A stretch of 56,397 nucleotides of DNA, from NCBI GenBank assembly GCA_051382305.1, contig JBBCAV010000168.1, forward strand, positions 1-56,397, in the 5' to 3' direction. Below, in pieces: positions 9,851 through 29,083 of the stretch; within the stretch, counting starts at the first letter, position 1; every line of letters starts with the position of its first letter. The translations under genes were made by a program, and so were the position numbers. Source of the stretch: Bdellovibrionota bacterium FG-2. GTDB lineage: Bacteria > Bdellovibrionota > UBA1018. The notes below the pieces were generated by a model. That model was not told the origin of the DNA. It did no database searches and saw nothing but the letters and a program-made list of their open reading frames with translations.

Positions 9851-10477
9851 ATGACGAAAAATACTGCCGTTCTTGCGATTTTTGGAATAACTCTGCTTTT
9901 GGGATCGGGGTGTTCGTCACTGACACGTGATCCAAATGTAATTCAGGCGAGCCACGATAAGAAGCCCAACTGGACCGAGGAGCCTGGCGGTAAAACAGAA
10001 AATGGGAATCATTTTTTTGTTGGCGCGGCAAGAAACATGATTGATCTTGATGGCGCTATTCAGGCGGCATCCTTGGACGCTGATCAGAAGATTGTCGAGC
10101 GGGTGAAGGTGGCAATTGTTTCCTCTGTGGCAAAGTCCAGAAATTCTGGCAATATTCAGGGCACAGAAGATACAAGTGTCGAAAATGGAAATATACCACA
10201 AACATCTTTGGATCAGGTCATCGGCAAGGCGGCCAAGGCGGTACTTTCAAACATTGAGATGTCAGGTCAATATTGGGTAAAACAGAAACTTGAGGACGAA
10301 AAAACTGGCAAAACAAAAATTCTTTACACAGCATGGAGCAGAAAGGAAGCTACCGCGAACCAACTGCGCGAGATGATTGATCGTGCCAACGGATTTCTAA
10401 AAGAGGAAAAGAAAATGAACCGTTACATGAGCAATCAGGCCCTCGAGTCTGCGAAAGAGTTGGTCGACAAACCCTAA
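9851..10477 (+). CDS. LPP20-like lipoprotein
   Basis: AAGGAG RBS, lipobox LGSGC, KPNW...FFVG...A...A pattern typical of LPP20-type domains. Confidence 0.65.
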   Translation: MTKNTAVLAIFGITLLLGSGCSSLTRDPNVIQASHDKKPNWTEEPGGKTENGNHFFVGAARNMIDLDGAIQAASLDADQKIVERVKVAIVSSVAKSRNSGNIQGTEDTSVENGNIPQTSLDQVIGKAAKAVLSNIEMSGQYWVKQKLEDEKTGKTKILYTAWSRKEATANQLREMIDRANGFLKEEKKMNRYMSNQALESAKELVDKP

Positions 10478-10492
10478 CTTTTGGGACTAGAA

Positions 10493-11671
10493 ATGTTTCC
10501 GCGCCGATTACTTTATCTTGCTGTACTAATACTTGCACTAGGCATGGGCCTCTCAGCTAACAAGATTATCGACGACATGATTGCTTTTGCGTCTCAATTT
10601 CAGGGGACTAGGTATGTCTTTGGTGGCAACGACCTTGCTCGTGGGATTGATTGCTCTGCTTTTGTCAGGCAGGTACTCTCTAAAGCTACCGGGCAGTCAC
10701 TTCCGCGAACAGCGAGAGAGCAGTTTCAATTCGGGGCACCAATAGAAAGAGAAAAGCTAAAGAAAGGCGACTTTATTTTTTTTGAAACGTGGCGTCCCGG
10801 CGCAAGTCACGTCGGCATCATGACTGGAAAAAATAACCAGTTCATTAATGCAGCCAGTTCAAAGGGCATCTCCACAGCAGTGCTTACCTCAAACTATTGG
10901 GATACTAAATACTTAGGTGCCCGTCGTTTTGTTCATACCTATGACGAACCCGCTGAGGTTAAATACTTCGACGAAAAACAAAAGTCGCAGCCTTTGCCTG
11001 AAATTTCTCAGGAAGAGTTAGCAAGAAAGACTGCGGAATTACTGCAACGTCGTGCACGAGAAGAACGAGATCAAACCGAGAGAGAACATGCTGAGAGACA
11101 ATTGAAAAAAACTGAGCTGGTACGAAATATTGCAAACAAAAGAAAGAAAGAGATTCCGGAAGTTTGCAAGAACTTGTTCACTTCTCCTTTTGAGGCATAT
11201 TTGCTGGATACGACTTACAAATTATTACCTGGGCAGCAATCGGGCCGCTTTGGTGAGACTATGTTTGTTATTGGGTCCACATCGAAAACGCAGCTCCGCG
11301 AGGGAAAAGATGGGAAGATGGAAACTTATGCTTCACGATCATGCGTTTACGTCCCATCGACGAAGAAATTTGGGGTTATCAATTCCATTGCCTTGTCCCA
11401 GGATTCGTCAGACCTCATCGTAGATCAGCGCTGTAAGATCTTTACGAGGCCTACAACAGCTAGTGTGGCCTCAGATACGACGCTTGAACTCAAATACGAT
11501 TATGAATCTGTCTTGGGCGAATACGTGGAGCCCTACAAGCTCAAGGTTGCTAAGGTTAAGGCCTCTACGTCACTGACTATTGTTGGGGAGGCTGAAACTG
11601 AAGCCGGTGACTACGCATGCGTGGAATATGAAAAGCGCGTGGTAGTGATCAACAAACTCGCCTTGAGGTAG
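10493..11671 (+). CDS. NlpC/P60 (C40) cell-wall peptidase with C-terminal extension
   Basis: YVFGG...GIDCSAFV, LPRTAREQ, GDFIFF, SHVGI, GARR motifs; signal peptide. Confidence 0.92.
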   Translation: MFPRRLLYLAVLILALGMGLSANKIIDDMIAFASQFQGTRYVFGGNDLARGIDCSAFVRQVLSKATGQSLPRTAREQFQFGAPIEREKLKKGDFIFFETWRPGASHVGIMTGKNNQFINAASSKGISTAVLTSNYWDTKYLGARRFVHTYDEPAEVKYFDEKQKSQPLPEISQEELARKTAELLQRRAREERDQTEREHAERQLKKTELVRNIANKRKKEIPEVCKNLFTSPFEAYLLDTTYKLLPGQQSGRFGETMFVIGSTSKTQLREGKDGKMETYASRSCVYVPSTKKFGVINSIALSQDSSDLIVDQRCKIFTRPTTASVASDTTLELKYDYESVLGEYVEPYKLKVAKVKASTSLTIVGEAETEAGDYACVEYEKRVVVINKLALR

Positions 11672-11697
11672 GTTTATGAAATGGAGAACGCTGAAAC

Positions 11698-12150
11698 ATG
11701 ACTAAACTTTTGATATTGCTAATTTGCGGCGTTTCACTGGCGGCCTGTGACTATGAAATCAAGAAGAAGGTAGCACCTGCGCCTGTTATACAAAGTAAGG
11801 AAGCAGAGGCGCCGCCTAGAGCTTCCGTAGAAAATGTCAATGTGCAGAAGACACCCCCTCCCGCTAAGAGTGACGAAGATAGTCTAAATCAAGTAATGAA
11901 CGAGGAAGCGGGAGCAAAGACTCCAACACAACCAAGGGTAACCGAGCGATCTCATACTTCAATGCCTGAGGCCATCGATACCGCGGAAGAAAAAAAGCGA
12001 AAAGCCCGCGCCGACGCAGCCGCGAGATTGGAAGCGGAAAACGATGCAAAACGGGCTGCCGATGCTGCGGCCGAAAAAACGGGTGGCGTTTCGTCTGACA
12101 AAGCTAAAGATGTAATCGACAAAGCTAAGGCACTACTTGATGAAAATTGA
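11698..12150 (+). CDS. Lipoprotein, low-complexity/coiled-coil
   Basis: GGAG RBS, lipobox SLAAC, Ala/Glu/Lys-rich body. Confidence 0.7.
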   Translation: MTKLLILLICGVSLAACDYEIKKKVAPAPVIQSKEAEAPPRASVENVNVQKTPPPAKSDEDSLNQVMNEEAGAKTPTQPRVTERSHTSMPEAIDTAEEKKRKARADAAARLEAENDAKRAADAAAEKTGGVSSDKAKDVIDKAKALLDEN

Positions 12151-12166
12151 GCGAGCAGTTCAAACA

Positions 12167-13249
12167 CTATAACTGTTCCACAAGCAGCTCCGAGACTAGC
12201 TCGGCCCCTTTGATGGCGAGTCTCATTTTGAGTCCACTCAAGGCCTCATCACGTTCGGCCCCCATTGCTCTCAGTGTCTTTGTTCGACGAGAAAACCGCC
12301 CCCCTTTTGGCGTAATGAGCTCAACTTCGGTCAAACCAGAAACCGAATAGGAACCAAAAACCTCTTCGATCTTGCCTAACTGTAACGTATATTTCACCTG
12401 ATACCCTACGGAGGCGATACTTCTCCCTGAGTTATGCCTAGTGGAAAAGCCTTGTCGCGCTAAAACATCAGCAATTTTTTCGGCCAAACTACCGGAGTCG
12501 CCTGGACCGCTTACAGATACCGTTACAGAGCTTCGACACTTTTGAAGTTGGGCCTGTTTCTCTTGTAGCCCCCCTGGCGCTTGAATGGATGAGGATTGAT
12601 CAAGGGCAAGGGCGAGATCACGATAACTCTGCCAACGAGAAAGATTCTCGATCATTTTTCGCCATGAGTTCATTGAGGAAGGGTCACCAGGCTGGCATTT
12701 CGAATTTGTGCCCTCCAGTTTTCTCGTTTCCAATGCGAGTTGTTTGGATTTGTTTTGCAGAGCACCGATGTATTGCCCAACATCCATGACGGCAACGGCT
12801 TCGACAGTGTTTGTTCCTTCGAATCTTTTAATCTGAGAAACATCGACCCCCTCCATTTGAACGCTAACGATTGCCCGAATAGACGTTGATTGTGTGGTGG
12901 TGGTTGAGCCTGAGTCCGAGTCACCAGTGGTTTGATTTGTACGCTTTGCGAGAGTTTGTTCGCCTTCGATTTTGGTGCTAATTGATTTGGCCAATTCGAT
13001 TCGTGCGTTTTCAACCGCAATTCTTTGGGCGCTCTCTGGATCTTCGGAAAGATTTCCAGATATTCCAAAACCTAACCTATATTTTGCGGAAGGAAATTTC
13101 TCTCTTAAAGAGGCCCGCCAACCGTCAGAGGTCAATTCACCGGCAGCTGTTGTGAGTACGCCATATGAGACAGCCATCACTGGCATGAGTAGAATTAACA
13201 AAAACTGACTGACTTTTCTTCGAGGCGGAGTCTTCTCATTGTGGTTCAT
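12167..13249 (-). CDS. LPP20-domain exported protein
   Basis: N-terminal hydrophobic segment; GFGIS...A...A...ARIELAKSISTKI LPP20-like motif. Confidence 0.7.
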   Translation of the reverse strand: MNHNEKTPPRRKVSQFLLILLMPVMAVSYGVLTTAAGELTSDGWRASLREKFPSAKYRLGFGISGNLSEDPESAQRIAVENARIELAKSISTKIEGEQTLAKRTNQTTGDSDSGSTTTTQSTSIRAIVSVQMEGVDVSQIKRFEGTNTVEAVAVMDVGQYIGALQNKSKQLALETRKLEGTNSKCQPGDPSSMNSWRKMIENLSRWQSYRDLALALDQSSSIQAPGGLQEKQAQLQKCRSSVTVSVSGPGDSGSLAEKIADVLARQGFSTRHNSGRSIASVGYQVKYTLQLGKIEEVFGSYSVSGLTEVELITPKGGRFSRRTKTLRAMGAERDEALSGLKMRLAIKGAELVSELLVEQL

Positions 13250-13342
13250 GATTAGACTTATCGGCAGATTGACGCAGGGAGGTTAGCCCCTTAACAATGC
13301 TTATGATTCAAGGCGATGAGCACTTTGAATCGGCCGTTTGAT

Positions 13343-13615
13343 CTAAGCCCGTCTTCCACATCTCATGTATCGGGTTCGCTCTGGCTCGGTCATCGGCACT
13401 AAATCTACTCCCCCATAAGGGGGCCGACAATTCCGTAAACGACGCACTACCAAAGGGATGCTCCGCCAGAGGCCCCACTCTATAATTGCCATTTTAGCAA
13501 ATTCTGAACACGTCGGTGAAAAACGACATGCCTGCCGTATTCTAACGGGCGCAAACCGTTGATATAGGCCAATCAAACAAATGGCTACTGCAGTTGAGAT
13601 CGACTGCCGCCACAT
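13343..13615 (-). CDS. yidD: YidD-like membrane protein insertion efficiency factor (haemolytic domain)
   Basis: IGLYQ...CRFSPTCSEF...G...RL..C.P...GG.D signature. Confidence 0.8.
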   Translation of the reverse strand: MWRQSISTAVAICLIGLYQRFAPVRIRQACRFSPTCSEFAKMAIIEWGLWRSIPLVVRRLRNCRPPYGGVDLVPMTEPERTRYMRCGRRA

Positions 13616-13625
13616 GGATGACCTG

Positions 13626-13883
13626 CTACACCTGTTTGAAAGTAATCACATAGTAAGTGGTACTCACTTCTTTGTGACCAAAAAGGCCCGCAAGACAACC
13701 TGGGGTCGATGTAACCCCAATTGGATCAACACGAAAGAATTCCCATCCTTGCCTTGCCATTTCGTTAACTGTTGCTTCCAAATACGCGGCAGCAACAGTA
13801 CTCTGGTCGGGTGCCTTGCCAAGCATTCCGGTCGCGGCGATTGTTACGTTCGGAGGAATTTGGACCATCTTGTATTTTGCCAT
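13626..13883 (-). CDS. DUF4177-like small protein
   Basis: KYKMV N-terminus, NEMARQGWEF motif, C-terminal ITFKQ. Confidence 0.7.
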   Translation of the reverse strand: MAKYKMVQIPPNVTIAATGMLGKAPDQSTVAAAYLEATVNEMARQGWEFFRVDPIGVTSTPGCLAGLFGHKEVSTTYYVITFKQV

Positions 13884-14332
13884 AAGTTATCCCTTTTTTG
13901 TTAACATTGAAAACGTCAAAAACATCGATTCCAAAGCAGGTGTGTTTTTACATCATTAGTATCGGCGAATTTTCTGAGTACGTTAATTTATTAGACGATA
14001 TTGCCATACCGCCGATCTCCAAGTCGCGCCTATGCACGGAGAGAATTTTCCATCAATTCTTCTTAGCGCCAATCTGATGACTGGATTCCAAATATCTGTC
14101 GGTGATTTCCGCCACACGGAATCCATCGTAAGTTGACACATCTCGCCTCACAGAAACAGCTATTACGTAATGTGCGGCTAGTACAGCTCGGCGGAATTTG
14201 GAATGCGTGCTCAAAGCACCGCCTAAATCACATCGCTTGCATGTACCCGGCAAATATCCTTTTGTCACGTCAGCCGCTTCCTCTGAGCACACTTAAAAAC
14301 TAAACTATCAAGCCCAAAAACGTGTCGGTATT

Positions 14333-16378
14333 TTACCCTCGCTGCTGCCAAGGGGGGCGCTTCTCCCTCACCTCTTTAACCCATGGCACTTCGCCCACGC
14401 TTTGGGCATCGGTGCCTGTACAAATGAAAAGCTCGGTAAACCCTCGGTCGTGAAGGTCCTTCGAGACAGTAAGTCCACTCTCACCTTTACCAAGCTTCAG
14501 ATCAACGAATATCGGAGTTGCACGATTGAGCCCCGCACAAATAGTTTCGAATTGCTCAAGCGATGCGAATGTTTTTATCTTCTTACCAACCTTCTTCGCA
14601 CTAAATCGCCAAGCGCCCCTTATTAGATCTTCATCATCAATAAGAATGGCATCAAACACAGAAGCAAGAGCATCAGAGATGAGCGGAAGCGCCGAAACAA
14701 CCGGAACAACACCCGAAAGTCCTTTTGGGATTAACTTCACGCCAAGGCTTTCAGCGCGAGTAAGAATGCCTGGCTCATCGAAGCGACTTGTAACCAAAAC
14801 TGCTTTTGCGCCAATCCCGAGACGTTCAATGCAGTCGAGGCCATTTTCAGGTTGCTCTACGAATTCATAATCAACGAGATACAGAACGCAGTCCCCATAT
14901 CCTTCCTCGTCTTTATGCCAGTGTGCAAATTCTTGCGGCGAAGAGAAATGAAATAGCTTCAAATCCAAGGCCGCAAACTCCGAAGCCTTGAAGCGTTCAT
15001 CCCAAACATGATGAATGCTCAAATCGTCATCAATAATAACGATTCGCTGTTTGGGCGTAAGTTCGATTCCTGAAACAAACCAAGCCGGAGTAGTTGCGCG
15101 GGGGATGCGTAGGGTAACCGTAGTACCTTGATCTTGCCCGCAGGAAATAAGGTCAAGTTTTGCACCCCACGATTCAAGTGTGTGTCGTGCATGATATAGA
15201 CCAAGCCCTGATCCGCCCTCCTTGTCAAAAGTCTCGCCCCGTCGACCCAAGCGCGATAGAACATCGGAGGGAATTCCCTTTCCATTGTCTCGAATTTCGA
15301 TCACGGCCTCGCCCGCAAACGCGGAAAGCAAAACCTCGACTCGCCCTCTGTCCGTCATGGCTTCAACGCTATTGTTAATGAGGTTCGAAAGAACTCGCTT
15401 GAATTCCCTTGGTTGAATGTTTGCAAAGGCGCCAAAGGCCAAATGGCTATCGATTTCAATATTGAGACGGGTGCGGTATTGGAGCCTCTTTTCGGTTATC
15501 AACTCGTCAACTAGGGTCGAAAGAAGTTGGACTGACCGGGATTCACTCGCCTGAATGACTCCAGACATCACGGGTTGTTTGAGGTCGTTTGCAATATCTC
15601 CAATTCTTAAGACTGAACGGCGCAGGAAAATCCGTTTATCTTCTGGAAGATCAGACAGCGTAGTGAGGATCATATCAAGCGCGGTAAGTGGCGAACGAAT
15701 ATCGTGTGCCACTTGTTGTCCTCGTTGAATCACGGCTTGCGAGATGGCTTCACTCGTTTTTGCTCTCTGCGCTTCAGCAAATGCTTGACGATGGACCTCA
15801 AACTCTCGAATCGAAAGTGGGGAGTCAGAAAGCATCCCTTCGGTTAACGGCTTTAGGATTTCATCGTGGAGACTTCCCTCAATCCTTCGAATCAACAGGA
15901 GCAATCCTATTATGAGAGCCGCCGAGAATAGAATTAGAAGCAAGAACGGCGCTTTGCCATACAACCAAGGAATCCCTACCCTAACATCATAATCAGCATA
16001 ACCAGAGAGAGGCGCGCGAATAAACTCCTCTTTGAATTTGAGAAACGCGAAGAATTTACTCGAACCCAGTGCTGCATCTGGGCACGCGCCGTTCGGAAGA
16101 CGAGAAGATGCAACAATGTCACCATTTTCGCAAAGCGCGGCCCAGGAACTCCCGATTTGCCATTCACTTGCGTTTAAAGTGGACTCAATCAGCATCAAGT
16201 TCTTTTGGCGAATCGCCAGGCCAGCGACTTCTGCCATGTGTCGTATGGCCTTAGCGCGATATTCGGTGGATTGTTGCCTCAAGCGATAGAGCTGCATGCA
16301 GGCCAAGGCCAGAACAATTCCGGCGATAGCAAAAAGCGGCAATCTCGTCTTGCGGTAAAACCAAACCTTGAGCCTCAT
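14333..16378 (-). CDS. Membrane-bound hybrid sensor histidine kinase with two C-terminal receiver-like domains
   Basis: Two TM segments around a roughly 100-aa periplasmic loop. H-box AHDIRSPL, N-box NLINNS, DNGKGI, GSGLGL. Receivers IIDDD...LVDY...TS...PK and LIDDE...FVDL...TG...EK. Confidence 0.93.
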   Translation of the reverse strand: MRLKVWFYRKTRLPLFAIAGIVLALACMQLYRLRQQSTEYRAKAIRHMAEVAGLAIRQKNLMLIESTLNASEWQIGSSWAALCENGDIVASSRLPNGACPDAALGSSKFFAFLKFKEEFIRAPLSGYADYDVRVGIPWLYGKAPFLLLILFSAALIIGLLLLIRRIEGSLHDEILKPLTEGMLSDSPLSIREFEVHRQAFAEAQRAKTSEAISQAVIQRGQQVAHDIRSPLTALDMILTTLSDLPEDKRIFLRRSVLRIGDIANDLKQPVMSGVIQASESRSVQLLSTLVDELITEKRLQYRTRLNIEIDSHLAFGAFANIQPREFKRVLSNLINNSVEAMTDRGRVEVLLSAFAGEAVIEIRDNGKGIPSDVLSRLGRRGETFDKEGGSGLGLYHARHTLESWGAKLDLISCGQDQGTTVTLRIPRATTPAWFVSGIELTPKQRIVIIDDDLSIHHVWDERFKASEFAALDLKLFHFSSPQEFAHWHKDEEGYGDCVLYLVDYEFVEQPENGLDCIERLGIGAKAVLVTSRFDEPGILTRAESLGVKLIPKGLSGVVPVVSALPLISDALASVFDAILIDDEDLIRGAWRFSAKKVGKKIKTFASLEQFETICAGLNRATPIFVDLKLGKGESGLTVSKDLHDRGFTELFICTGTDAQSVGEVPWVKEVREKRPPWQQRG

Positions 16379-16385
16379 AATCTCC

Positions 16386-17921
16386 CTATTTCAGCTTAAA
16401 AACATCCAGGTGCCCATAATTGCGCTGCATTAGATCGGAGTTCGCCTCTACTCGATCCCGGTTTATAATTGCAACGGCTCGACTAAAGCCAAGATGCACA
16501 AAAGGCACTTCTTCTAAAGCCGCTCTGGAAACGTTTTTGTAGTGCGAATCCAGCACCTCTTGATCAAGCAGCTTGCGGCCTTCCTCAAGAAGAGCGCCCA
16601 CTGTTTTCCTATAAATGATGGGAGCAAGAATTGACCCGCGCTCGCCCAGGGCATGGTAGATTCCGTCAGGGTCCCCATTTAAAACGCTGAAGGTCGTTGC
16701 AAAGAGATCATAGTCCTGTCGGTTGTACATGTAATTGAAGTGCTCGCCTTGAGGGATCGGTCCCGACTTTTCAGACACCGAGACGCCAAACTTCTTCAAC
16801 TCCTCAGTCACCCAAAAACCGATAGGATCCGAGATGAAGTGAATCGGGTGTTTTTTAGACGCTTCGACTAATTCTGGAATAAATTGCTCACCCTCTTTGA
16901 TTATCCGCTCTGCCTCTGAACGATCGAGACGTCCCGCCTGCGCAGGAAGAAAGATTTGGGGATCTAGCGAAAAATATTCCTTGGCGCCAATCAGAGTGGG
17001 TTCGCGCGAAATGCGACTATAGATTATGAATTGCAGAGCACGCCTGAGATTTGAGTTTTCAAAAAGATGGCCGGCCAATCCATTAATGTTAAGAACGATG
17101 TGAATGGCCTCAGGACCTGGCAGAACTTGAAGATCTGGTTGCGCAGCAACGTCGGAGAAAATTCGTGACCCCATCGTATACGCCATTGCGTCGATCCGAT
17201 TTTCCAACAATGCAGCCTTCGCGTCCCTTGACCAAACCAGGGACAACTCCACCGGCCCCAGCCCTTTGGATTCAGGATTGTATGGGTTTGGTGTGAGCTT
17301 TAGCGCAGTGGGCGAAGTCTCCTCGATTACAAATTTCCCAGTACCAATCAATTTAGTACCGACATTACGATAGGCCGATAGCCTCGCACCATCGAAGTAA
17401 TCAAGCGCCATTCGGAAGGGACGCCTAAATCGAACCCGCAAAGTTTCGTCATCGACCACGAGAATCCCGGAGATTGTCTTATTTTTCTCAAAATTCTCAA
17501 AACCTTCAATCTGATAAAGGGTGTCTAAAAGACTGCTATTAGCCGATTTTGGCTCTAAACGGTAAGACTCCTCCCAAGATCTCTTGAAGTCGTCGGCCCT
17601 AAGCGGTGCCCCGTCTGAAAAGCGTTTGGATGGGTCGATCTTGAAAGTGAACTCTCTAAAATCCTTCGAAATGCTCCAAGACTTTGCCCCACAGGGTTGA
17701 AGACCTCCGTGTTCGTCTGTCCCGACGAGTGTATCGAATTGATTCGACAAAACCAATCCCGCCCACATGGTGTGCTGCAAACCAGGATGAAGGGACTTCC
17801 ATTCGCCGCCAATTCCGAGACGAATAGGACGGGAGTGTTCCGAATTTTTTTGTATGAGGGTAACCATTGCAATTCCTCCAAGAGCCAGAATCAAAATCGG
17901 GAGCCATTTTCTTTTGAGCAT
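16386..17921 (-). CDS. Family-5 (OppA/DppA-like) substrate-binding protein, orphan
   Basis: FDTLV...P..AKSWSIS.D..EFTF.I....FSDG.PL.ADD.K.S, GTGKF, L..N..Y motifs; N-terminal anchor; no permease or ATPase gene nearby. Confidence 0.9.
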   Translation of the reverse strand: MLKRKWLPILILALGGIAMVTLIQKNSEHSRPIRLGIGGEWKSLHPGLQHTMWAGLVLSNQFDTLVGTDEHGGLQPCGAKSWSISKDFREFTFKIDPSKRFSDGAPLRADDFKRSWEESYRLEPKSANSSLLDTLYQIEGFENFEKNKTISGILVVDDETLRVRFRRPFRMALDYFDGARLSAYRNVGTKLIGTGKFVIEETSPTALKLTPNPYNPESKGLGPVELSLVWSRDAKAALLENRIDAMAYTMGSRIFSDVAAQPDLQVLPGPEAIHIVLNINGLAGHLFENSNLRRALQFIIYSRISREPTLIGAKEYFSLDPQIFLPAQAGRLDRSEAERIIKEGEQFIPELVEASKKHPIHFISDPIGFWVTEELKKFGVSVSEKSGPIPQGEHFNYMYNRQDYDLFATTFSVLNGDPDGIYHALGERGSILAPIIYRKTVGALLEEGRKLLDQEVLDSHYKNVSRAALEEVPFVHLGFSRAVAIINRDRVEANSDLMQRNYGHLDVFKLK

Positions 17922-17938: not shown

Positions 17939-18295
17939 TTATTGGCCCCAGCCACCGCCACCACTTGCGACGCTGGAACTGATGTTCTTCTCGTTTATCT
18001 GAAGAAGGCCGTTCTTCAAGAGGGTTTGTAGCGCCTGATCAAATTTTGCGTTCAATTCGTTTACGTCCTGAATCGCACTGCTCTTGCTGAAACGCACATA
18101 CGCCTCGTCAATGGTAGTCTCGGTCTCAAAATCACTGAAAAGCTGTCCTTTGATCTTGAGGGCGTCGCCTAAGAGAATTCCCTTTTGGACTTCTCCTTCC
18201 ATGGCCGAAAGTTCCGAGGTCGCGGCAAGCGAAATCGATGCTATCGGCATCACCGCTAATACTGTAAGAATCAACTTACGAAATTGCAGATGCAT
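17939..18295 (-). CDS. Small secreted protein, candidate RiPP/signal-peptide precursor
   Basis: AAGGAG RBS, Sec signal ending ISLA, helical PqqD-like body (TIDE...L..LLKNGLLQI), C-terminal SSSVASGGGGWGQ; start overlaps the radical SAM gene end. Confidence 0.7.
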   Translation of the reverse strand: MHLQFRKLILTVLAVMPIASISLAATSELSAMEGEVQKGILLGDALKIKGQLFSDFETETTIDEAYVRFSKSSAIQDVNELNAKFDQALQTLLKNGLLQINEKNISSSVASGGGGWGQ

Positions 18296-19379
18296 ATAAA
18301 TACTCCTTCTTGATTTGGGTTTGACTCATCTGAGTCTGGGGGACCAACCAACAGCCTGGATCGGCTGCCAGATAATCCCCGGTTTCGGCATAGGCCGCAT
18401 TACGATCACCGCCGCAGCGATCAAAGTGGGGGCACTCCCCACACACTTTGATTCGGCCTCGGCGAAGATTCACAAAAACAGGATGATTGAAGAAAAGCGT
18501 TTCAAGTCTATTTCCTAGGGCGCTCCCCAATGCCAAGCGTGAGCGACTTGAAGCCAGGAGACTACCCTGGTAGTCGATGACAATCCCTTCCCAGAAACGA
18601 CCGCTGCGCCCTAGCCCTGGGTGCAGGAGTGTATAAAGGGGATGATTGGCATGAGTCTTTACGCCCGTCCGAGCGGATTCGATTAGGATGGATTGGTAGG
18701 CGAGCTTTAGGGTTGTTGGCGATAGCGAGAGGTTCTTTTCCCCTGGTTGCCGAGGCTGAATAAGGCGAGTGAAGCTCATATGTGAAACACCCACTCTTTT
18801 GGCTAAATCAAAAAATGCAGGAATCTGGGGGGCGCTTCGTTGATCCAGGATAGCCTGGAAATAGGCGGAACCCCCCTCCCCCTTTAGATACTGCGCGCAG
18901 GCAACAGCCTTATCGAAACTGCCGGGGCCTCTGATTGAGTCGTGCGATTTGGCGTCCGGTGCGTCCAAACTAATTTGAATTGAAACTTCGGGGAAGCGCT
19001 TCAACAACTCGGGCTTGAGACGCTCAGGTAAAGTGCCATTGGTCAGAATTACGATGCGGGTCTTATGATCTTTCGCATGGATCCAATCCAAAAGCGGCCG
19101 AAAATGAGGACTCAGGGATGGCTCCCCTCCGCAGAGGAGGACCATAGGGCGAAACCTAAGCCGCGCAATCATCGTATAATATTGATCGAGGATACTGATC
19201 CACTCCGGCAGACCGATGGCTCCGTCATTTGTATGGTGGGGGTGATAGCAGTGGGCACACCGGAGGTTACAAAGATTGGTAATATCGAGCTGAATTGGCA
19301 GATACCGATCCACATCGATCCAAGCTAGAATCTCGTTTTCAATGCGACGGAGAATGCGAGGCAAAAAAGAGGGGATCAC
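18276..19379 (-). CDS. Radical SAM enzyme with SPASM-type C-terminal domain
   Basis: CNLRCAHC (CxxxCxxC), GGEP, TNG, QISLD, HDSIRG.GSF; C-terminal CxxCx5C...DPGC. Confidence 0.95.
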   Translation of the reverse strand: MIPSFLPRILRRIENEILAWIDVDRYLPIQLDITNLCNLRCAHCYHPHHTNDGAIGLPEWISILDQYYTMIARLRFRPMVLLCGGEPSLSPHFRPLLDWIHAKDHKTRIVILTNGTLPERLKPELLKRFPEVSIQISLDAPDAKSHDSIRGPGSFDKAVACAQYLKGEGGSAYFQAILDQRSAPQIPAFFDLAKRVGVSHMSFTRLIQPRQPGEKNLSLSPTTLKLAYQSILIESARTGVKTHANHPLYTLLHPGLGRSGRFWEGIVIDYQGSLLASSRSRLALGSALGNRLETLFFNHPVFVNLRRGRIKVCGECPHFDRCGGDRNAAYAETGDYLAADPGCWLVPQTQMSQTQIKKEYLYASAIS

Positions 19380-19606
19380 TTTGGAGTGCCAGCCTTTATG
19401 GCCTCTTTGAGGGATCGCAGGTGATCGAGACTTGAGTTGATGTGTTTAAGTGAAGCTTGGTAAAATGAGGAACCGCTTTCCTCGCCATCACACTGCGTCT
19501 CGTGAATATCGGAAAACGCTGCATCGCAAACCGTTTGTAGCGCACCTAGGCCGGCCCGGAGATCGTGATAGATTTTTTCAAGCTCTGGCAGTGTGTTTGT
19601 ATTCAT
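19376..19606 (-). CDS. 76-aa stand-alone HisKA/DHp-like protein
   Basis: YHDLRAGLGAL resembles the kinase H-box AHDIRSPLTAL; two predicted helices; ATGA/GTGA coupling on both sides. Confidence 0.6.
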   Translation of the reverse strand: MNTNTLPELEKIYHDLRAGLGALQTVCDAAFSDIHETQCDGEESGSSFYQASLKHINSSLDHLRSLKEAIKAGTPK

Positions 19607-21222
19607 TGGATGAACTCCTGGTTCTGGGTTCTTGAATCGCCTTTAAGTTTTCGTCCTAAAATCCGTCGATTTTCTTGGCGAGCTTTCGCTGTTTTAAGGC
19701 GGGTGCTGAGGCCACTTTCTGACATTTTAAGCGCTTGTGCTAAATCCCTGCCTTTTGGGTATTTCTTTTTTGCGCTAATGATAATTTGGTCGCTCAAGAT
19801 TTCAAGCAGTGGGAAAATGCCCGGAAAGCCAGGTCCCACAACGTCCAACTCGGATTTCAGCAGTTGCTTTAGATTTAACACTCCATCGCCAAACCCCATA
19901 GGAGACGCCTGCTTCAAAGTGGTGAAGATCTGCGGAATTGATCGCCAGCTATTGAGATCCGGTTTACGGTCTCGATCACGAGGAGATAAAGTAAATAGAC
20001 GCCCCAAGAGATGGTTAATTCCGCGCACGTTACCCTCGGGAGGATTAGCCATAACCTCGTGAATAAAGTCTTGCGGCAGATCTTCATAAGAAACAAAAAC
20101 CCCTGCTTCGCGTGCTACCGAGGGGACGCGGGAACGAATGAGTTCAGGAATATCCTCTGCTCTTTCCGAGAGACTTGGCATTCTGACAACGAATGAGGAG
20201 ATTCGCATATAGAGGTCTTCACGAAATTCTCCGCTTCTTACCATTGTCTCAAGGTCTCTGTTGGTCGCACAGATGAGCTTGAAGTTGGATCTTAGAATCG
20301 TGTTCCCACCCACTCGGGTGAATGCGCCTTCTTCGATAACTTTAAGAAGCTTAACTTGAAGCTCAAGCGAGGCTTCACCGATTTCGTCTAAAAAAATCGT
20401 TCCGCCATTTCCCATTTCAAAAATGCCGGGCCGCATTTTCATTGCCCCAGTAAAGGCGCCCGCTTCATGTCCGAAAAGTTCACTCTCTACGAGACTAGGA
20501 GATATGGCCCCCATGTTTTTTTCGATAAAGGGACGCGCAGATTGGTCGAGATAATCGCGTCTAAGCTCGTTTATGATCTTAGCGTAGGTCGATTTTCCCG
20601 TTCCAGTTTCTCCTAAAATCAAAAGTGGATAATTGCTTTGAGCAAAGAGTGGAGCCTGTTGCCTGAGTTGGCGGATTGGAAGTGAAATCCCCGCCAGCTC
20701 TGGGGTCTCAGATTTTACGCCCTTGGACGATGGGGGCTGCCCTAGATCGGCGAGAGAACTTTCGACTACCAATTTCTCATGACGAATTGCCGCTTTGATT
20801 TGCTCACGCAACAAATCGTCTGAAGTTCCTTTAACATAATAGCCGAATGCCCCGAGCTTAATGGCCCTCACGGTGTCTTGATGGTCGGTACTTACTGTGA
20901 CGACTATGATCTGAAGATGTGGTTGAAGCTGAAGGAAACGCCCGATGAAGTTGATGCCATTCGTTTCGGGGTCATCGCCGTCAATGTCGTCACCCAAGTT
21001 CTTATCGAGAATCAAAACCTGAACGGGTTTTTCGGCAAGGGTTCGAAGCGCATCCTGCGCGGTAAAACAGTAAACAGCGCGGAGATTTTTCGTCGCCTCA
21101 TCCCTTTTTAAAATGAGCTTCATCTGCTGATGCATGAGTTCGTCATTATCAAGCATTAGAATGCTAGCCCCCTCCTTAAAATCAGAGGGTGGAGAACTAG
21201 ATTTTGGAAAATTAGGCTTCAT
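19603..21222 (-). CDS. Sigma54-dependent response regulator (NtrC family: receiver, AAA+, HTH)
   Basis: Receiver (LILD, T, VK), GETGTGKS, ESELFGHEAGAFTGA, FLDEIGE, FREDLY.R, GNVR, C-terminal LAQALKMSESGL HTH. Start taken at ATG 21222; the frame is open to 21300. Confidence 0.95.
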   Translation of the reverse strand: MKPNFPKSSSPPSDFKEGASILMLDNDELMHQQMKLILKRDEATKNLRAVYCFTAQDALRTLAEKPVQVLILDKNLGDDIDGDDPETNGINFIGRFLQLQPHLQIIVVTVSTDHQDTVRAIKLGAFGYYVKGTSDDLLREQIKAAIRHEKLVVESSLADLGQPPSSKGVKSETPELAGISLPIRQLRQQAPLFAQSNYPLLILGETGTGKSTYAKIINELRRDYLDQSARPFIEKNMGAISPSLVESELFGHEAGAFTGAMKMRPGIFEMGNGGTIFLDEIGEASLELQVKLLKVIEEGAFTRVGGNTILRSNFKLICATNRDLETMVRSGEFREDLYMRISSFVVRMPSLSERAEDIPELIRSRVPSVAREAGVFVSYEDLPQDFIHEVMANPPEGNVRGINHLLGRLFTLSPRDRDRKPDLNSWRSIPQIFTTLKQASPMGFGDGVLNLKQLLKSELDVVGPGFPGIFPLLEILSDQIIISAKKKYPKGRDLAQALKMSESGLSTRLKTAKARQENRRILGRKLKGDSRTQNQEFIQ

Positions 21223-21305
21223 TGTACTGGAACTCACCCGAGAACCTCGCTTCGAGCGGTTTTTAGCTCGGCGCGTCAACAAATGCAAATACAAATTCAC
21301 TGAAT

Positions 21306-21370
21306 CGAATATTCGGGCGCTGAAAAATTCGTTTTGGCGAATTATTTATTCGAAATTCAGAATTTCGAAT
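21306..21370. promoter_or_regulatory. Cluster of palindromes, candidate enhancer (UAS) sites for the sigma54 activator
   Basis: CGAATATTCG (21306-21315), AATTCG-N6-CGAATT (21326-21343), perfect ATTCGAAATTC-A-GAATTTCGAAT (21348-21370), 100-165 bp upstream of the -24/-12 box. Confidence 0.6.
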
Positions 21371-21442: not shown

Positions 21443-21470
21443 ACAAAAGAAACCCATTCCTATCGCCATG

Positions 21471-21485
21471 TGGCACGGATACTGC
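21471..21485 (+). promoter_or_regulatory. Sigma54 (-24/-12) promoter for the conjugation-side operon
   Basis: TGGCACGGATACTGC: GG-N10-GC spacing, near-consensus, 52 bp before the first ATG (21537) and divergent from an NtrC-family gene. Confidence 0.85.
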
Positions 21486-21536
21486 CTAAGGGGTTCCCGT
21501 TCGGCTCAACTTCCCCGAACTGAAAGGAGTAGTTTC

Positions 21537-21782
21537 ATGGACCTAAATTCGAACCAGCGAATGAGTTTGGCAAGCCTTCCTTCGGATGTCTTCAACCAAT
21601 GCCCACGCTGCGAAAGTCTCGGGATTCTAAAGTTTGAAGGAGAGGCCTTCTGCCTTCGCTGCGATTGGGACAGCGTTAGGCTTCATGTGGATTGCCAAGT
21701 GTTTGGCTATCGCATGCTGAATCGCCAGTGGCCAATCCTAGGGGTCAAGGCAGATACCCAATTAGCTTACTCAAACCAATGA
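21537..21782 (+). CDS. Small zinc-ribbon protein (copy A1)
   Basis: AAAGGAG RBS; CPRC-x13-CLRC followed by DWDS. Confidence 0.75.
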   Translation: MDLNSNQRMSLASLPSDVFNQCPRCESLGILKFEGEAFCLRCDWDSVRLHVDCQVFGYRMLNRQWPILGVKADTQLAYSNQ

Positions 21783-21825
21783 ACCAAACGTCAAAAAAAC
21801 CAAATTAAAAAAGGAAAACTTCAAA

Positions 21826-22044
21826 ATGAATACAATAACTGCTTCCGAAAAAGACAACACCTTCGATGTGATTCAGCTCATCCATGCAGGAGTCCAAAAC
21901 TTCAAAGCCCTTCAGCAAAGAGTTCGGGAACGCCTTAAGAAAATGAACCAAGATGCCGCCGAGACACAACATCGAATTGAACTTGCCAAAACGAATTGGG
22001 ATTCAGCCAATGGATACTACTCCTATCTTCGAGACTTCAGATAA
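21826..22044 (+). CDS. Small helical hypothetical protein (B1)
   Basis: AAAGGA RBS; coiled-coil-like body ending NGYYSYLRDFR. Confidence 0.65.
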   Translation: MNTITASEKDNTFDVIQLIHAGVQNFKALQQRVRERLKKMNQDAAETQHRIELAKTNWDSANGYYSYLRDFR

Positions 22045-22058
22045 CGGGAAAGACGCCC

Positions 22059-22274
22059 ATGGGAGTCCAAAAGGAATCGATTAAGAAACCGCGCGATGTC
22101 TTCAAGAAATGTCCACGGTGTAGCCGTGGTCCACTGATTACATTCGATGATGACGTACTTTGTCCTGCTTGCCCTTGGGACAGTATTTCTCAGTACTCAG
22201 ATGCCCTCTTTGATCATCGAGTCGGTCCCCTGTTTGCACTCCCAACAGCTTCACCCCTTCTCGTCGTAGTTTAA
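22059..22274 (+). CDS. Small zinc-ribbon protein (copy A2)
   Basis: DVFKKCPRC-x13-CPACPWDS, paralogous to 21537..21782. Confidence 0.7.
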   Translation: MGVQKESIKKPRDVFKKCPRCSRGPLITFDDDVLCPACPWDSISQYSDALFDHRVGPLFALPTASPLLVVV

Positions 22275-22304
22275 AACACCGCACTAACCAAAAAAGGAAA
22301 CGAT

Positions 22305-22508
22305 ATGAAAACCGAATTTAGAACAACTCCCCTAAAAGATACGCGACTACGCCGCATTATGGCGCAGACTCAGACCTTATTACGGGCACAGCTCACTCGT
22401 TTGAACAAAGTAATCATCAAGGCTCGTGAAGCCGACGAACAAAATCAGAGGTTTCTCGAACAAAGTGCAATGGAGCATGGCTACTTCTGGACGCGCGAAC
22501 GCTTCTAA
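22305..22508 (+). CDS. Small helical hypothetical protein (B2)
   Basis: AAAGGA RBS; coiled-coil-like body ending HGYFWTRERF. Confidence 0.65.
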   Translation: MKTEFRTTPLKDTRLRRIMAQTQTLLRAQLTRLNKVIIKAREADEQNQRFLEQSAMEHGYFWTRERF

Positions 22509-22549
22509 GAAGCAGAAATAATACAAAGGAATAATACGAGGTAAAACAA

Positions 22550-24931
22550 ATGGAAACTCGCAAAACCATACTTATAACTAAGATCATCCCCTTCCTTCTA
22601 TTGCTCACCTTTGACGCTGGATGCTCTAAAAGCGGAAACAAAAACGGTAATGCGGGAACCCAAAGCCTCGAAGGTGCGCCTCTCGCCAAGGCTCAGACAC
22701 CTTCCGAAACAATTCCTGAAGCGAGTCCTCAACCAGAAGCTGTCTCTCCACCACCGGCTCCACGGACGGAGCCCATCACTTTGATTCCAAAACCAACGCC
22801 AGAGCCGTCACCTTCGGCATCACCAGATGCGGTCGTCACACCCATACCGGTTGAACTTCAGGAGCCAGATTACTTAAGTTCATCCAAATACTCTGACTAC
22901 GGATTGGTCGAGGCGCAAACCATCTCACCTCGTTACCTTCGCGAATTGCGCGCACGCACTCAGGGCAGTGAGCTTGTCAGACTGCGTGTGGGCAAGTTGG
23001 ACGCAGTGAGTGTGTACTGGCTTAAAGGCTATGAATTCAAAAATGCCGTTGTGTTTCAGCCCAAGATATTTGTTTCAAGCTCACTCACGGGTGGACGACC
23101 CAGAATTATCGAGGGACCGGACGCAACTGCCTCAATGACAGTGGCCCTCGCTTTCGTCGATGGGATGACGCCAAATCTCTCAACTCCCTTTGGACCGCGT
23201 GAAGTTCCAAGCCAATACCGGATCAATGATTTGGCAGGAATCAAAGATCAGCTCTACAAGATCATGGGCGGCGCTCCCTTGATCTTGGGGTTCAATCGCT
23301 GTCCCGTAAAACTTGCACTTCAAATGGAAGCGCAAACCAAGATTTCAATTGTCCTCCCACCAGGACTTACCACTTGCCCGATCAACACCTTCATCCCCGC
23401 TACGATCAGGGCTTCAAAAGATGTGCTCAGGCGATTACTCGAGGACTCCATAACGCGCGGGGTGCCCGAGATCTCCGCAAAATGGGACCTCTCAACTCCA
23501 ATTGCGGTTAAGGCAGTATCGGCCCACATCAAAAATGAACCTATGGAAAAACGCTTGGATGCCGTATGGAAACGCGGCGGTACGGTGCTCGCCACTGAGG
23601 CCGTCGAACAAATAGACCTCCTCGCCCGTGAAGTATTCAAGGATCTAGACCTCACTCCGTCTCAGTTGCTGCTTAATGACCTAAGTACGCAAGTCATTAA
23701 ACAGGATTTCTCAGAACTGCCCCGAGCCCAGTGTCCCAACGGAGTGCGCTGCTTCAAGCGTAACGCTGTGGGAACGGGCCGTGATTTTGACCTAAACGAC
23801 ATCGATAACGAGTATTTTGGTCCCGAGATGCCGATTGCAGCGCGCGCGGCGCTTTATGAAATCATCAGCGAGAAATCCGCCATCATGCTTAAGCGAGATG
23901 ACCGAAACTTCTTTGACCCTCCGGTGGGCGAGCTGAACAATACGCTTCGCATGGTTTCAGAGGGAGACCTAATCGAAATCAATCTTGAAAAGTTTCTCAA
24001 AACCGAAATCAGAACGCCTGAGCCTGTCGTGCGCTTTGAGCCAAACAAAAGTTGCGTTGAAACCTTCATGCAATGCACGAATGGAGGTTGGATTTGCATC
24101 AATAAAGGGACGGAGCCCGACAACTGTCGAACAGCCTATGAAACAGTGGGGCGCTGCGATCGCTGCACAGACGTCATCGCACCAGGAGCGAATTGTCACG
24201 TCTTTGGCTGCGATCCAATCGCACTTGCCTGCACCAAACAGTGTGGAGGCACGCGCTGTGATGCGTGCGCCAGGGAACAAAAAGGTATAACGATATGCGA
24301 TCAGGTTCCACTTTGCTTGAGGCTCAGTAAATCCCCGCCGCCAAAGCCTGTGCCGTATCGAGTGAATCCCACACCTATAATGACGGCGGATTTCGTCTGG
24401 GTTTGCAGTCGATTTGAAGAGGTCTGCGCCAGATACGAGGAACATTGGGAGCGATTCACCCAGTTTGCCGAACCTGCGCTTGGTGTGACGTCGGTTGAAA
24501 GACCCCTTATGGAGTTGGATTTAACCCAAATCGTGGGTGGCTTGGATCTCCGCTTCCTGAGTTCCGGTCCAAACAAGCGTTACGACGTTACTTGTCCCAT
24601 GCTTAAGTTTGATTGGCACTTCTCGGGAACGAGACTCTTTGCACGCATCCAAAACGTCGCGGGTTGCCCTGATATCTTCAACCAAGATAATCGTCGCGAA
24701 GGCTATGCGCCTACGCTTTCAATCATCAATCGCATCTCTATGCCTGAGCGTTTTCGGTGTGGGAGTCTAACAGAAACGTATCGAGGAGAGATGTTTAACG
24801 TCTGTGTTTTGCCTGATGGATCGCGCGAAGAATCGCATGAACCCATTTGGAAGAGCTATTTCCCTAGGGTTGAACTCCAGGGTTCGATTCGGGTGCTGGG
24901 AGCATATTTTGAAAGTGAATTGGAGGAGTGA
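22550..24931 (+). CDS. Large Cys-rich lipoprotein, unknown function (paralogue 1)
   Basis: GAGG RBS, lipobox DAGC, Pro-rich tether, dense Cys insert in the C-terminal third. Confidence 0.8.
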   Translation: METRKTILITKIIPFLLLLTFDAGCSKSGNKNGNAGTQSLEGAPLAKAQTPSETIPEASPQPEAVSPPPAPRTEPITLIPKPTPEPSPSASPDAVVTPIPVELQEPDYLSSSKYSDYGLVEAQTISPRYLRELRARTQGSELVRLRVGKLDAVSVYWLKGYEFKNAVVFQPKIFVSSSLTGGRPRIIEGPDATASMTVALAFVDGMTPNLSTPFGPREVPSQYRINDLAGIKDQLYKIMGGAPLILGFNRCPVKLALQMEAQTKISIVLPPGLTTCPINTFIPATIRASKDVLRRLLEDSITRGVPEISAKWDLSTPIAVKAVSAHIKNEPMEKRLDAVWKRGGTVLATEAVEQIDLLAREVFKDLDLTPSQLLLNDLSTQVIKQDFSELPRAQCPNGVRCFKRNAVGTGRDFDLNDIDNEYFGPEMPIAARAALYEIISEKSAIMLKRDDRNFFDPPVGELNNTLRMVSEGDLIEINLEKFLKTEIRTPEPVVRFEPNKSCVETFMQCTNGGWICINKGTEPDNCRTAYETVGRCDRCTDVIAPGANCHVFGCDPIALACTKQCGGTRCDACAREQKGITICDQVPLCLRLSKSPPPKPVPYRVNPTPIMTADFVWVCSRFEEVCARYEEHWERFTQFAEPALGVTSVERPLMELDLTQIVGGLDLRFLSSGPNKRYDVTCPMLKFDWHFSGTRLFARIQNVAGCPDIFNQDNRREGYAPTLSIINRISMPERFRCGSLTETYRGEMFNVCVLPDGSREESHEPIWKSYFPRVELQGSIRVLGAYFESELEE

Positions 24932-28211: not shown

Positions 28212-28757
28212 GTGAAGTGCCAATACTCGCATCCAATCGTGTCGTTTCTGTTGGGGCTGGAACTCTTAAGTTGTTCCTGGGGGTGCTCAACAATGGGTAA
28301 CCGCTCCAAAACGTTAGCCTTGATGACTGTATCTGCGGTCACGGCAGGGACGATTGGTGCGGTATTGGCGCCTTCTGATGAACGCAAATTTGCGCATGCC
28401 GCTCTTTGGGGCGGATTGAGTGCCACCACTACCGGAGTGCTTGGGCTATTCATCTTTGATGAGGAGTCCAAAAGGCGGGAGTCTGAAGCCAAAGCTCTGA
28501 AACTTGAGAAAGATCTCGCGGCGATAAACTCAGAAATGGCGCCTGAGTTGATTGCGACAAATCGCTTAGGTTTGACTAAACCCTTGCCCGATAAATTCAA
28601 AAATCTCATCACGCCTGGCGAGTGGAGTCTATATCGCGTGGATCGATGGGCAAGCTCAGGCGAGAACGAGCTTGTGCATCAGGATCTAATTTTTAGATTT
28701 CATCAGCCACAACTTAACCCGATGGGAAAACCAACAGTTAACGAAGGAGGAAAATAG
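28212..28757 (+). CDS. Conjugation lipoprotein (TraV/VirB7-like)
   Basis: Lipobox SWGC, glycine-zipper-like segment, C-terminal PG.W..Y.VDRW...E.ELVHQ; first gene of the T4SS block. Confidence 0.45.
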   Translation: MKCQYSHPIVSFLLGLELLSCSWGCSTMGNRSKTLALMTVSAVTAGTIGAVLAPSDERKFAHAALWGGLSATTTGVLGLFIFDEESKRRESEAKALKLEKDLAAINSEMAPELIATNRLGLTKPLPDKFKNLITPGEWSLYRVDRWASSGENELVHQDLIFRFHQPQLNPMGKPTVNEGGK

Positions 28758-28760
28758 AAA

Positions 28761-29078
28761 ATGAGAACAATCAAGCCAGAGGTTTTAAATGGAATGGTCT
28801 TTAGCATTATTGTTGCGTTGGTCGTCGCGTTGATCTCCCCAGTATTGAGTTTTGCGGCTAGAGATTTGTCATCCGTTGCAGATGGTGCGGTCACCCAGGC
28901 CACGACTATCGCAAGAGCATTAAGCGTTTTGGGAGTGCTTTGTGGCGCTGTGTTTTACCAAATCCCAGGTGCCACGATGTTTGCAAGAGGCACAATTGTT
29001 GGTGGCTTAATCGGTGCGGGTTTGAGCTTTGCTGGTCCTAGCCTAATCGGACTCTTTCGTGGGCTATTCGGGGGATAA
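28761..29078 (+). CDS. Pilin (VirB2/TrbC-like)
   Basis: Long signal ending SFA followed by two hydrophobic helices; position upstream of VirB3/VirB4. Confidence 0.65.
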   Translation: MRTIKPEVLNGMVFSIIVALVVALISPVLSFAARDLSSVADGAVTQATTIARALSVLGVLCGAVFYQIPGATMFARGTIVGGLIGAGLSFAGPSLIGLFRGLFGG

Positions 29079-29083
29079 TCTAT

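Follow-up and report, generated by a model that had tools for sequence, protein, structure and literature searches.

How does a radical S-adenosylmethionine (rSAM) enzyme that carries no recognition domain of its own find its substrate, and what would the modified product be for? The question is raised by a 118-codon gene in contig JBBCAV010000168.1 of Bdellovibrionota bacterium FG-2 (assembly GCA_051382305.1), whose 56,397 nucleotides (nt) were analysed as a whole and are named the window here. The gene follows the one of an rSAM enzyme and codes for a small protein with a predicted export signal that is, judging from the gene context described below, the best candidate for the substrate of that enzyme. 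The cassette to which the two genes belong most likely combines a self-made signal with its detector on a mobile element. We give even chances to the fuller form of this reading, in which the small protein would be modified before export and then sensed by a binding protein and a kinase that control a divergent σ54 operon of a conjugative element.

The Six-Gene Operon

The genes of the cassette and the parts of the small protein are the following.

19603..21300, minus strand: σ54-dependent response regulator, 565 amino acids (aa), first gene of the operon (Pfam Sigma54_activat 6e-55, Response_reg 5.5e-13)
19376..19606, minus strand: 76-aa stand-alone DHp (H-box)-like protein (hhalign to kinase DHp, homologues)
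18276..19379, minus strand: radical SAM enzyme, 367 aa (Pfam Radical_SAM 7.1e-18)
17939..18295, minus strand: gene of the small exported protein, 118 aa, stop codon at 17939-17941 (open reading frame and translation)
18224..18295, minus strand: predicted Sec-type signal peptide, codons 1-24, cleavage SLA↓A (sequence features, hydropathy, column statistics)
17975..18175, minus strand: winged-helix body, codons 41-107 (AlphaFold2 model, VIA-align, hhalign)
17942..17974, minus strand: flexible tail SVASGGGGWGQ, codons 108-118 (low model confidence, motif counts)
17963-17965, minus strand: Ser111, the conserved Ser of the S-x-x-P-S motif (69/71 family members)
16386..17921, minus strand: orphan family-5 (OppA/DppA-like) solute-binding protein, 511 aa (Pfam SBP_bac_5 4.8e-27)
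14333..16378, minus strand: 681-aa hybrid histidine kinase whose C-terminal domains are receiver-like (Pfam HATPase_c 2.4e-19, HisKA 6.6e-4, Response_reg 7.8e-4)

The six genes form one minus-strand operon in the order σ54 regulator, 76-aa protein, rSAM, small protein (the fourth), binding protein and kinase, with overlaps or gaps of −20 to +17 nt. The start of the small gene overlaps the 3′ end of the rSAM gene by 20 nt and is preceded by an AAGGAG ribosome-binding site 7 nt 5′ of its ATG. An earlier note on this DNA had placed a putative precursor at 17939..18295, coordinates that are borne out by the 118-aa open reading frame (ORF) on the minus strand. The same note had described a short rSAM without an obvious N-terminal recognition element of the kind found in the maturation of peptides that are made by ribosomes and modified after translation (RiPPs), hereafter RRE. 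This is confirmed: the CxxxCxxC motif stands at residues 37-44 of 367, which leaves no room for such a domain. The note's remark that no dedicated transporter or peptidase gene is present also holds for the six-gene operon. The nearest solved relatives of the enzyme in the PDB are SkfB (6.9e-18), an unnamed rSAM (8vpo), PqqE (1.4e-10) and anSME (7.6e-9); SkfB, PqqE and anSME act on peptides or proteins.

The small protein matched no family in Pfam (E ≤ 0.1) or NCBIfam, and a search of the ESM Atlas gave no usable match. The family profile compared with PDB sequences returned weak matches to designed repeat proteins only, and no PqqD appeared up to E ≤ 10. In 1.84 billion representative proteins, searched exhaustively with a profile, the small protein has 73 clusters at E ≤ 1e-3, 51 of them at E ≤ 1e-10; the family statistics given below were computed over 71 cluster representatives. 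In the sample of the phylum the long (winged-helix) form of the window is carried by 9/301 genomes, or 8/257 high-quality ones, and it was not found in the other searched genome of the same genus (98% complete). Its distribution across the phylum is patchy. In one database protein of 476 aa (P0019) an rSAM and the small protein form a single reading frame that has the signal peptide in its interior; a genuine fusion or a lost stop codon may account for this.

Conservation of the Cassette and Three Precursor Builds

A scan with the rSAM alignment, using one genome per species, yielded 328 relatives; the best 80 were retained. The in-group of the rSAM tree comprises 26 sequences (23 from related loci, the window copy and its two paralogues) that group into a single clade (support 100/100) apart from rSAMs of ~29% identity. 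The latter lie in unrelated contexts in 7/7 loci examined. Members of the clade with the core order belong to Bdellovibrionota and Elusimicrobiota, and the order that recurs is rSAM, small exported ORF, binding protein and kinase. A small ORF with a signal peptide directly follows the rSAM gene clearly in 26 of the 29 related loci examined and in an atypical manner in two more (L034, L040); the exception, L035, contains masked bases. Among the 23 loci with at least 1.5 kb of downstream sequence, 22 have a family-5 binding protein after the small ORF and 22 a histidine-kinase match beyond it, located on the opposite strand in L038. The σ54 regulator is found upstream in 15/32 loci. At the gene level the small ORF thus shows what is expected of an rSAM-modified, RiPP-like precursor: it stands beside a maturase, is conserved together with it and keeps a core motif (see below).

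The L038 locus, on an Elusimicrobiales contig, has two pairs of rSAM and binding-protein genes that face each other with one kinase gene between them. Transposase-like ORFs come right after the small gene in loci L018 and L020, and L018 keeps only the last part of the binding-protein gene; these two cassettes appear to be disrupted by insertion sequences.

Three builds of the precursor were distinguished. The winged-helix build is the one of the window, a second build (type-2) of ~100-118 aa has an unrelated body, and short forms of 49-62 aa, present in Elusimicrobiota and in some Oligoflexia-type genomes, have no body at all. Type-2 proteins and the window family have only the first 30 columns, that is the signal peptide, in common (hhalign probability 97%, E 7.9e-11). 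The rSAMs of all three builds are of similar length and lack an RRE, and body types are distributed in line with the rSAM sub-clades of the tree.

Predicted Export Signal and C-Terminal Tail

The 24-residue signal peptide described in the earlier note has the features of a Sec substrate cleaved by signal peptidase I: a positive n-region (MHLQFRK), a hydrophobic stretch of 17 residues (Kyte-Doolittle peak ~3.0), in keeping with the 7-15 or more residues expected there, and small residues at −3 and −1 in the cleavage context S-L-A↓A (residues 22-25). There is neither a lipobox Cys nor a twin-Arg motif in it. These features and the gene context make export by Sec, also put forward in that note, the most likely route.

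This part of the protein varies less than the body. P17 is kept in 97% of the family, A25 in 93% and A24 in 73%, and the mean column entropy is 2.05-2.24 bits in the signal peptide vs 2.69 bits in the body, a difference to which the hydrophobic alphabet itself contributes by lowering entropy. A hidden Markov model (HMM) of 26 positions, from which the window protein, both its paralogues and protein P0004 had been left out, was run on the genome's 56,611 six-frame ORFs. It singles out the three cassette ORFs only (E 1e-6 to 9e-6), the next ORF following at E 1.3. The export signal is thus specific to the family; this would suit a further role in recognition but does not prove it.

At the other end, the window protein terminates in the sequence NISSSVASGGGGWGQ, rich in Ser and Gly and with one Trp as noted previously. 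Residues 108-118 are disordered in the AlphaFold2 model (predicted local distance difference test, pLDDT, below 50 at 112-116). Only three positions of the whole protein are nearly invariant in the family, P17, A25 and S111, and the last of them anchors the tail consensus [IL]-[IVL]-S-x-x-P-S-x. Taking Ser111 as position 0, a Ser is present there in 69/71 members, Pro at −1 in 50/71 and Ser at −4 in 45/71; the window tail (S107-S-V-A-S111-GGGGWGQ) is a Pro-to-Ala variant of S-x-x-P-S. When the loci-derived precursors of all three builds are pooled, a strict form of the motif falls within the final 16 residues of 12/25, vs 2.3 expected from shuffles.

A role of Trp as cross-link site, suggested earlier, is not supported: Trp is found in the tail of 19/71 members only, whereas Ser111 is kept in 69/71. 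Any of Trp, Tyr or Phe occurs in 42/71 tails, and 16/71 have no aromatic residue or His. The mature part has a Cys in 6/71 members, a rarity that makes thioether chemistry improbable for the family as a whole. Alignment of the homologues, from which a conserved body and a variable or motif-bearing tail had been expected, gave a tail with a motif; the body is not common to the sister systems.

The Winged-Helix Body and Its Relation to PqqD

A model of the small protein was built with AlphaFold2 on an alignment of 71 rows. Its mean pLDDT is 72.5, with values of 78-91 over residues 41-110. The elements assigned by DSSP are a long helix α1 ending at residue 52, a strand at 59-61, helices at 62-73 and 78-94, and strands at 98-100 and 104-107. 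The topology of the modelled body is the canonical winged-helix order α1-β1-α2-α3-β2-β3, with the hairpin wing at the C-terminal side. VIA-align comparison with 48,161 chains returned mostly generic winged-helix domains among the 50 matches listed (ORC, Hel308, cullin WHB, ArsR/SmtB, BlaI/MecI, SelB; Z 5.4-7.2), none of them at Z 8 or more (best Z 7.2). With such middling Z values the model supports a winged helix as fold class only. Foldseek gave no match at E ≤ 0.001 (best E 0.034). A solved PqqD or RRE was not among the 50 matches listed by either program, which leaves room for a match of that family outside the lists.

DNA binding by the winged helix was considered and rejected on charge and on the presence of the signal peptide: the mature protein is acidic (pI, isoelectric point, of 4.5; below 7 in 63/71 members), which makes such a role unlikely. 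Weak Pfam matches of single members to other winged-helix families concern SelB-wing_2 (5/71, best E 2.2e-4) and HemN_C (2/71). PqqD is not among the 25 Pfam families listed for the 71 members.

The earlier note had seen in this body the helical end of a PqqD-like recognition element. RRE and PqqD domains consist of a three-stranded N-terminal β-sheet followed by three helices, the sheet and helix 3 forming the leader-binding groove. The comparison was made with a profile of 28 genuine PqqD proteins from the same phylum. Aligned with it by hhalign, the 71-member family reached a probability of 45% (E 2.2e-4, score 28.0, 55 columns), and the top score of the controls (2 reversed and 30 column-shuffled profiles) was 13.9. 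Residues 49-104 of the small protein are paired with the three PqqD helices and the PqqD β-sheet is left out; no counterpart of this N-terminal sheet exists in the model of the small protein. The type-2 family compared with the same PqqD profile gave a probability of 0.6%. What survives of the proposed PqqD/RRE-like helical body is thus a weak, helix-only similarity that none of the 32 controls approaches; membership of the family finds no Pfam match and no N-terminal sheet to stand on, and of the checks against PqqD that had been suggested, Foldseek shows no PqqD among the 50 matches listed and the profile comparison with hhalign is limited to the helices. The resemblance is real but weak and partial. 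The modelled body has a winged-helix fold; it may be distantly related to the PqqD helices but does not belong to the PqqD family.

From this resemblance the earlier note had derived a model in which the body is a PqqD/RRE-type domain that docks the precursor on the RRE-less rSAM, the tail Trp being the cross-link site. The enzyme indeed lacks an RRE, and no protein matching PF05402 was found in a six-frame search of the 85%-complete source genome (0 matches at E ≤ 1e-5), a search that was positive in 36/151 genomes of the phylum. The profile similarity of residues 49-104 beyond all controls, the fold class shared with RREs and the body type that tracks the rSAM sub-clade speak for docking as well. 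The model has to contend with the absence of a Pfam PqqD match, with a β-sheet that remains outside the alignment and a wing that is C-terminal where an RRE has its leader-groove sheet, with Trp missing from most tails and 16/71 of them without aromatic residue or His, and with sister RRE-less rSAMs that work with an unrelated body or with none. Because the body is not common to the sister systems and the PqqD similarity is weak, a self-carried RRE in place of the missing one is not supported: a single rSAM clade (100/100) serves three types of substrate. We consider this model distinctly unlikely; docking by the body might at most be a refinement within one sub-family, not a principle of the family.

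Set beside PqqD/RRE domains (PF05402), the small protein shares the winged-helix class and a weak profile similarity over three helices that includes the C-terminal L..L...GL[IL] pattern. It differs by the lack of an HMM match and of the N-terminal sheet, and by a winged-helix body that belongs to the exported substrate, not to the enzyme, and is absent from sister systems.

Binding Protein, Kinase and a Probable Phosphotransfer Protein

Downstream of the small gene lie the genes of the presumed detector. The binding protein carries an N-terminal membrane anchor, and its N-terminal part matches OppA (3.5e-10) and DppE (1.4e-9) in the PDB; no ABC permease genes were found beside its gene. For a complex between the binding protein (residues 31-511, 21 aligned rows) and the small protein in its mature form (residues 25-118, 71 aligned rows), prediction gave a score of 0.02 against a mark of 0.32; obtained without controls, this value speaks neither for nor against binding.

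The 76-aa protein encoded between the regulator and the rSAM has no match in Pfam or among PDB sequences. Its eight homologues share an invariant His14-Asp15, and its profile aligns with the DHp region of the cassette's kinase at a probability of 94.4% (hhalign, E 9.5e-8), its His being matched to the H-box His, against 0.3% for the reversed control. It is likely, on this similarity, to be a histidine phosphotransfer component, possibly of the Spo0B/ChpT-like kind. It was seen in 5/25 other loci examined, and the related cassettes that have it include one in Elusimicrobiota. The possibility that this ORF is the true precursor of the rSAM was rejected on account of its DHp-like character and of its presence in 5/25 other loci only.

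Genome Copies and Conjugative-Element-Like Surroundings

The source genome, a Bdellovibrionota-type assembly of 433 contigs, contains three copies of the cassette, with rSAM paralogues 91% and 79% identical to the one of the window. The copy in contig C107 (about 10349-17277) is complete and lies beside genes for TraU, a T2SSE ATPase, TraF, TraE, TraK and TrbI; in the C206 copy (about 337-4329) the regulator ORF is shortened to 269 aa. The two paralogues of the small protein are 85% and 79% identical to it. The ratio of nonsynonymous to synonymous substitution rates (dN/dS) is 0.06-0.16 in these comparisons with a dS of 0.85-1.6; therefore the gene is genuine and the copies are old paralogues under purifying selection, not strain variants.

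The region upstream of the operon and the neighbouring genes of the window include:

21349..21369, no strand assigned: palindrome TTCGAAATTC-A-GAATTTCGAA, ~100 bp upstream of the σ54 site, single occurrence in the window
21471..21486, plus strand: σ54-type promoter-like site TGGCACGGATACTGCC, facing the divergent operon (consensus scan)
21468-27756, plus strand: divergent operon behind the σ54-type site, with four small ORFs and two Cys-rich secreted proteins
29374-31611: TraG P-loop ATPase, within 28212-42271
34220-35113: TrbI
35986-37554: coupling protein
38449-39702, plus strand: tyrosine recombinase
41036-42271, minus strand: tyrosine recombinase
10481-13883, ordinary neighbours upstream of the cassette in window coordinates: NlpC/P60 hydrolase, LPP20-like lipoprotein (12167-13249), YidD (13343-13615) and a DUF4177-like ORF

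The σ54-type site was identified with a consensus taken from general knowledge; the same type of element (TGGCACAGATCATGCC) occupies the same position in the C107 cassette. The palindrome was matched in 0/100 shuffles, has a related palindrome in C107 and is a candidate enhancer site for the σ54 regulator. Two of the four small ORFs in the divergent operon are paralogous and have CxxC...CxxC motifs, and homologues of the small ORFs of this operon lie beside the second cassette (58-60% identity). The two Cys-rich secreted proteins (793 and 942 aa) are also paralogous and have no Pfam match.

Segment 28212-42271 of the window holds genes typical of a conjugative element; no tRNA gene that could mark an element boundary was found in the window. 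The TraG ATPase has weak matches in two further genomes (L015 and L023), where they lie upstream of the cassette. Because conjugation genes adjoin them, the cassettes look like regulatory modules of integrative conjugative elements (ICEs). Their patchy occurrence and the presence of three copies in one genome agree with this as well.

The Proposed Pathway and Its Alternatives

The preferred reading, a modified small protein that is exported and sensed, can be laid out in five steps. The RRE-less rSAM would modify the pre-protein in the cytoplasm, either on the S-x-x-P-S motif near the C-terminus (Ser111 in the window protein) or beside it. The product would leave by Sec through the family-specific signal peptide, perhaps also the leader or recognition element for the enzyme, with cleavage after Ala24. 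In the periplasm the acidic winged-helix body would present the flexible modified tail to the membrane-anchored, transporter-less OppA-like protein. The latter would control the hybrid kinase, from which phosphate may pass via the 76-aa DHp-like protein to the σ54 regulator. Finally, the regulator would drive the operon behind the divergent σ54 promoter in the conjugative-element-like cluster. A bolder version holds that the Sec signal peptide doubles as the rSAM leader and that the Ser-motif product is a pheromone-like signal which, through the OppA-type protein and the hybrid kinase, switches on ICE transfer genes in predatory-type two-membrane bacteria; we rate it as rather improbable.

The only invariant Cys residues of the C-terminal domain of the rSAM are four (313, 316, 322 and 343), which suggests one auxiliary cluster; the pattern presumably corresponds to a single cluster, as judged by the cluster ligands of anSME. 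A full SPASM domain has seven or eight Cys, and most SPASM peptide maturases differ from the one-cluster pattern. No NCBIfam model reaches its cut-off with the enzyme (top TIGR04053, 92 bits vs a cut-off of 395).

Several points weigh against the preferred reading. The rSAM has the motif for one auxiliary cluster only, and its NCBIfam E-values are similar for the tetrapyrrole enzymes AhbD and NirJ2 and for peptide maturases (MftC), so that a substrate other than a peptide is conceivable. The tail beyond the conserved Ser is short and variable (0-11 residues, most often 2), and the motif is loose in the short forms of Elusimicrobiota. Conservation of the signal peptide could come from shared ancestry alone. 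At the score threshold applied, the scan gave no σ54 site for the cassette itself; as the site detected faces the divergent operon, an autoinduction loop is not indicated. Modification, export and binding are all deduced from sequence. Lastly, the signal peptide of bufferins is reported to be dispensable for modification (PMC11626156).

The first of these points also nourish another explanation, that the small protein assists the binding protein and kinase in the periplasm, as an accessory or adaptor, while the rSAM works on a small molecule, a tetrapyrrole-like ligand or some other protein. The best NCBIfam scores, which include AhbD and NirJ2, the single auxiliary-cluster motif and a small protein that is a folded domain and not a short peptide would all suit it. 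It accounts less well for the position of the small ORF, always directly after the rSAM gene and often overlapping it, for the nearly invariant Ser in a disordered tail, and for the many systems in which the protein shrinks to 49-62 aa, signal peptide and tail only, which fits a substrate better. On balance we hold an adaptor role to be unlikely, and retain the small protein as the enzyme's best candidate substrate.

Should the modified-signal reading be correct, an rSAM that acts without a recognition domain on a small protein bearing a signal peptide would represent a new mode of substrate recognition. Being linked so strictly to a kinase and to a peptide-binding protein that has no transporter, it would point to a candidate route of peptide or protein signalling across the periplasm of two-membrane bacteria, and the neighbouring conjugation genes suggest that DNA transfer is what is controlled. 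With one nearly invariant Ser in a disordered tail, the family offers a clear experimental handle. No description of this rSAM cassette was found in the open-access full-text literature, supplements not covered.

Comparison with Known Systems

The closest parallel for the precursor is provided by the bufferins, whose BufA precursors are modified by the MNIO enzyme BufB with its DUF2063-RRE partner BufC (PMC11626156, PMC12452194). In these reports a Sec signal peptide is called rare and highly unusual in bacterial RiPP precursors and is described as experimentally shown only for bufferins (PMC11626156, PMC12452194). The likeness extends to a precursor of 80-120 aa in which a Sec signal peptide replaces the classical leader, to a product that is small, folded and periplasmic, and to the lack of a dedicated exporter or leader peptidase. 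The differences are that the enzyme here is an rSAM without partner protein, that the conserved residue is Ser and not Cys, and that a binding protein and a kinase take the place of copper-stress genes as conserved neighbours. The marks of bufferins (DUF2282 or BUF_6/12Cys in the precursor, MNIO and DUF2063 neighbours) were not found: Cys is present in 6/71 members, and no such genes adjoin.

The combination of a Sec signal peptide with a small folded mature protein, which resembles the bufferins (PMC11626156), could still mean that the small protein is a bufferin-like periplasmic RiPP serving in metal or cofactor binding or in redox buffering, and that the two-component genes only regulate it. 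The rarity of Cys in the mature part, the lack of any conserved His or Cys cluster, a binding protein and kinase conserved with the gene as tightly as the rSAM, and the location on conjugative-element-like DNA make this very improbable. Three further systems invite comparison.

The sulfatase-maturing enzyme anSME acts with Sec-exported sulfatases and recognizes the motif C/S-x-P/A-x-R. The rSAM of the window, with ~370 aa and no RRE, would likewise act on a Ser of a signal-peptide-bearing protein before export. It differs by the absence of the sulfatase motif, by one auxiliary-cluster motif instead of two and by a target that is small and dedicated.

In Vibrio, LuxS and the LuxP-LuxQ / LuxU / LuxO phosphorelay use a furanosyl borate as signal, and LuxU is of the Hpt type. 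A periplasmic binding protein, a hybrid kinase, a small phosphotransfer protein and a σ54 regulator are found in the window too, beside the enzyme that would make the signal; the regulator matches the LuxO model at 1.6e-55, far below the cut-off of that model. In the cassette of the window a modified protein would stand in for the borate signal, the binding protein belongs to family 5, and the putative phosphotransfer protein is DHp-like, not Hpt.

In the pheromone-responsive conjugation of enterococci the peptide is bound by PrgZ, an OppA-type protein. The binding protein of the window has a weak match to PrgZ (PDB 4faj, E 7.8e-4), and the two systems would have in common an OppA-type protein on a conjugative element and a peptide signal that controls transfer genes. 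They differ in that the binding protein described here is paired with a kinase and has no transporter, that the element itself would make the signal with its rSAM, and that the host has two membranes.

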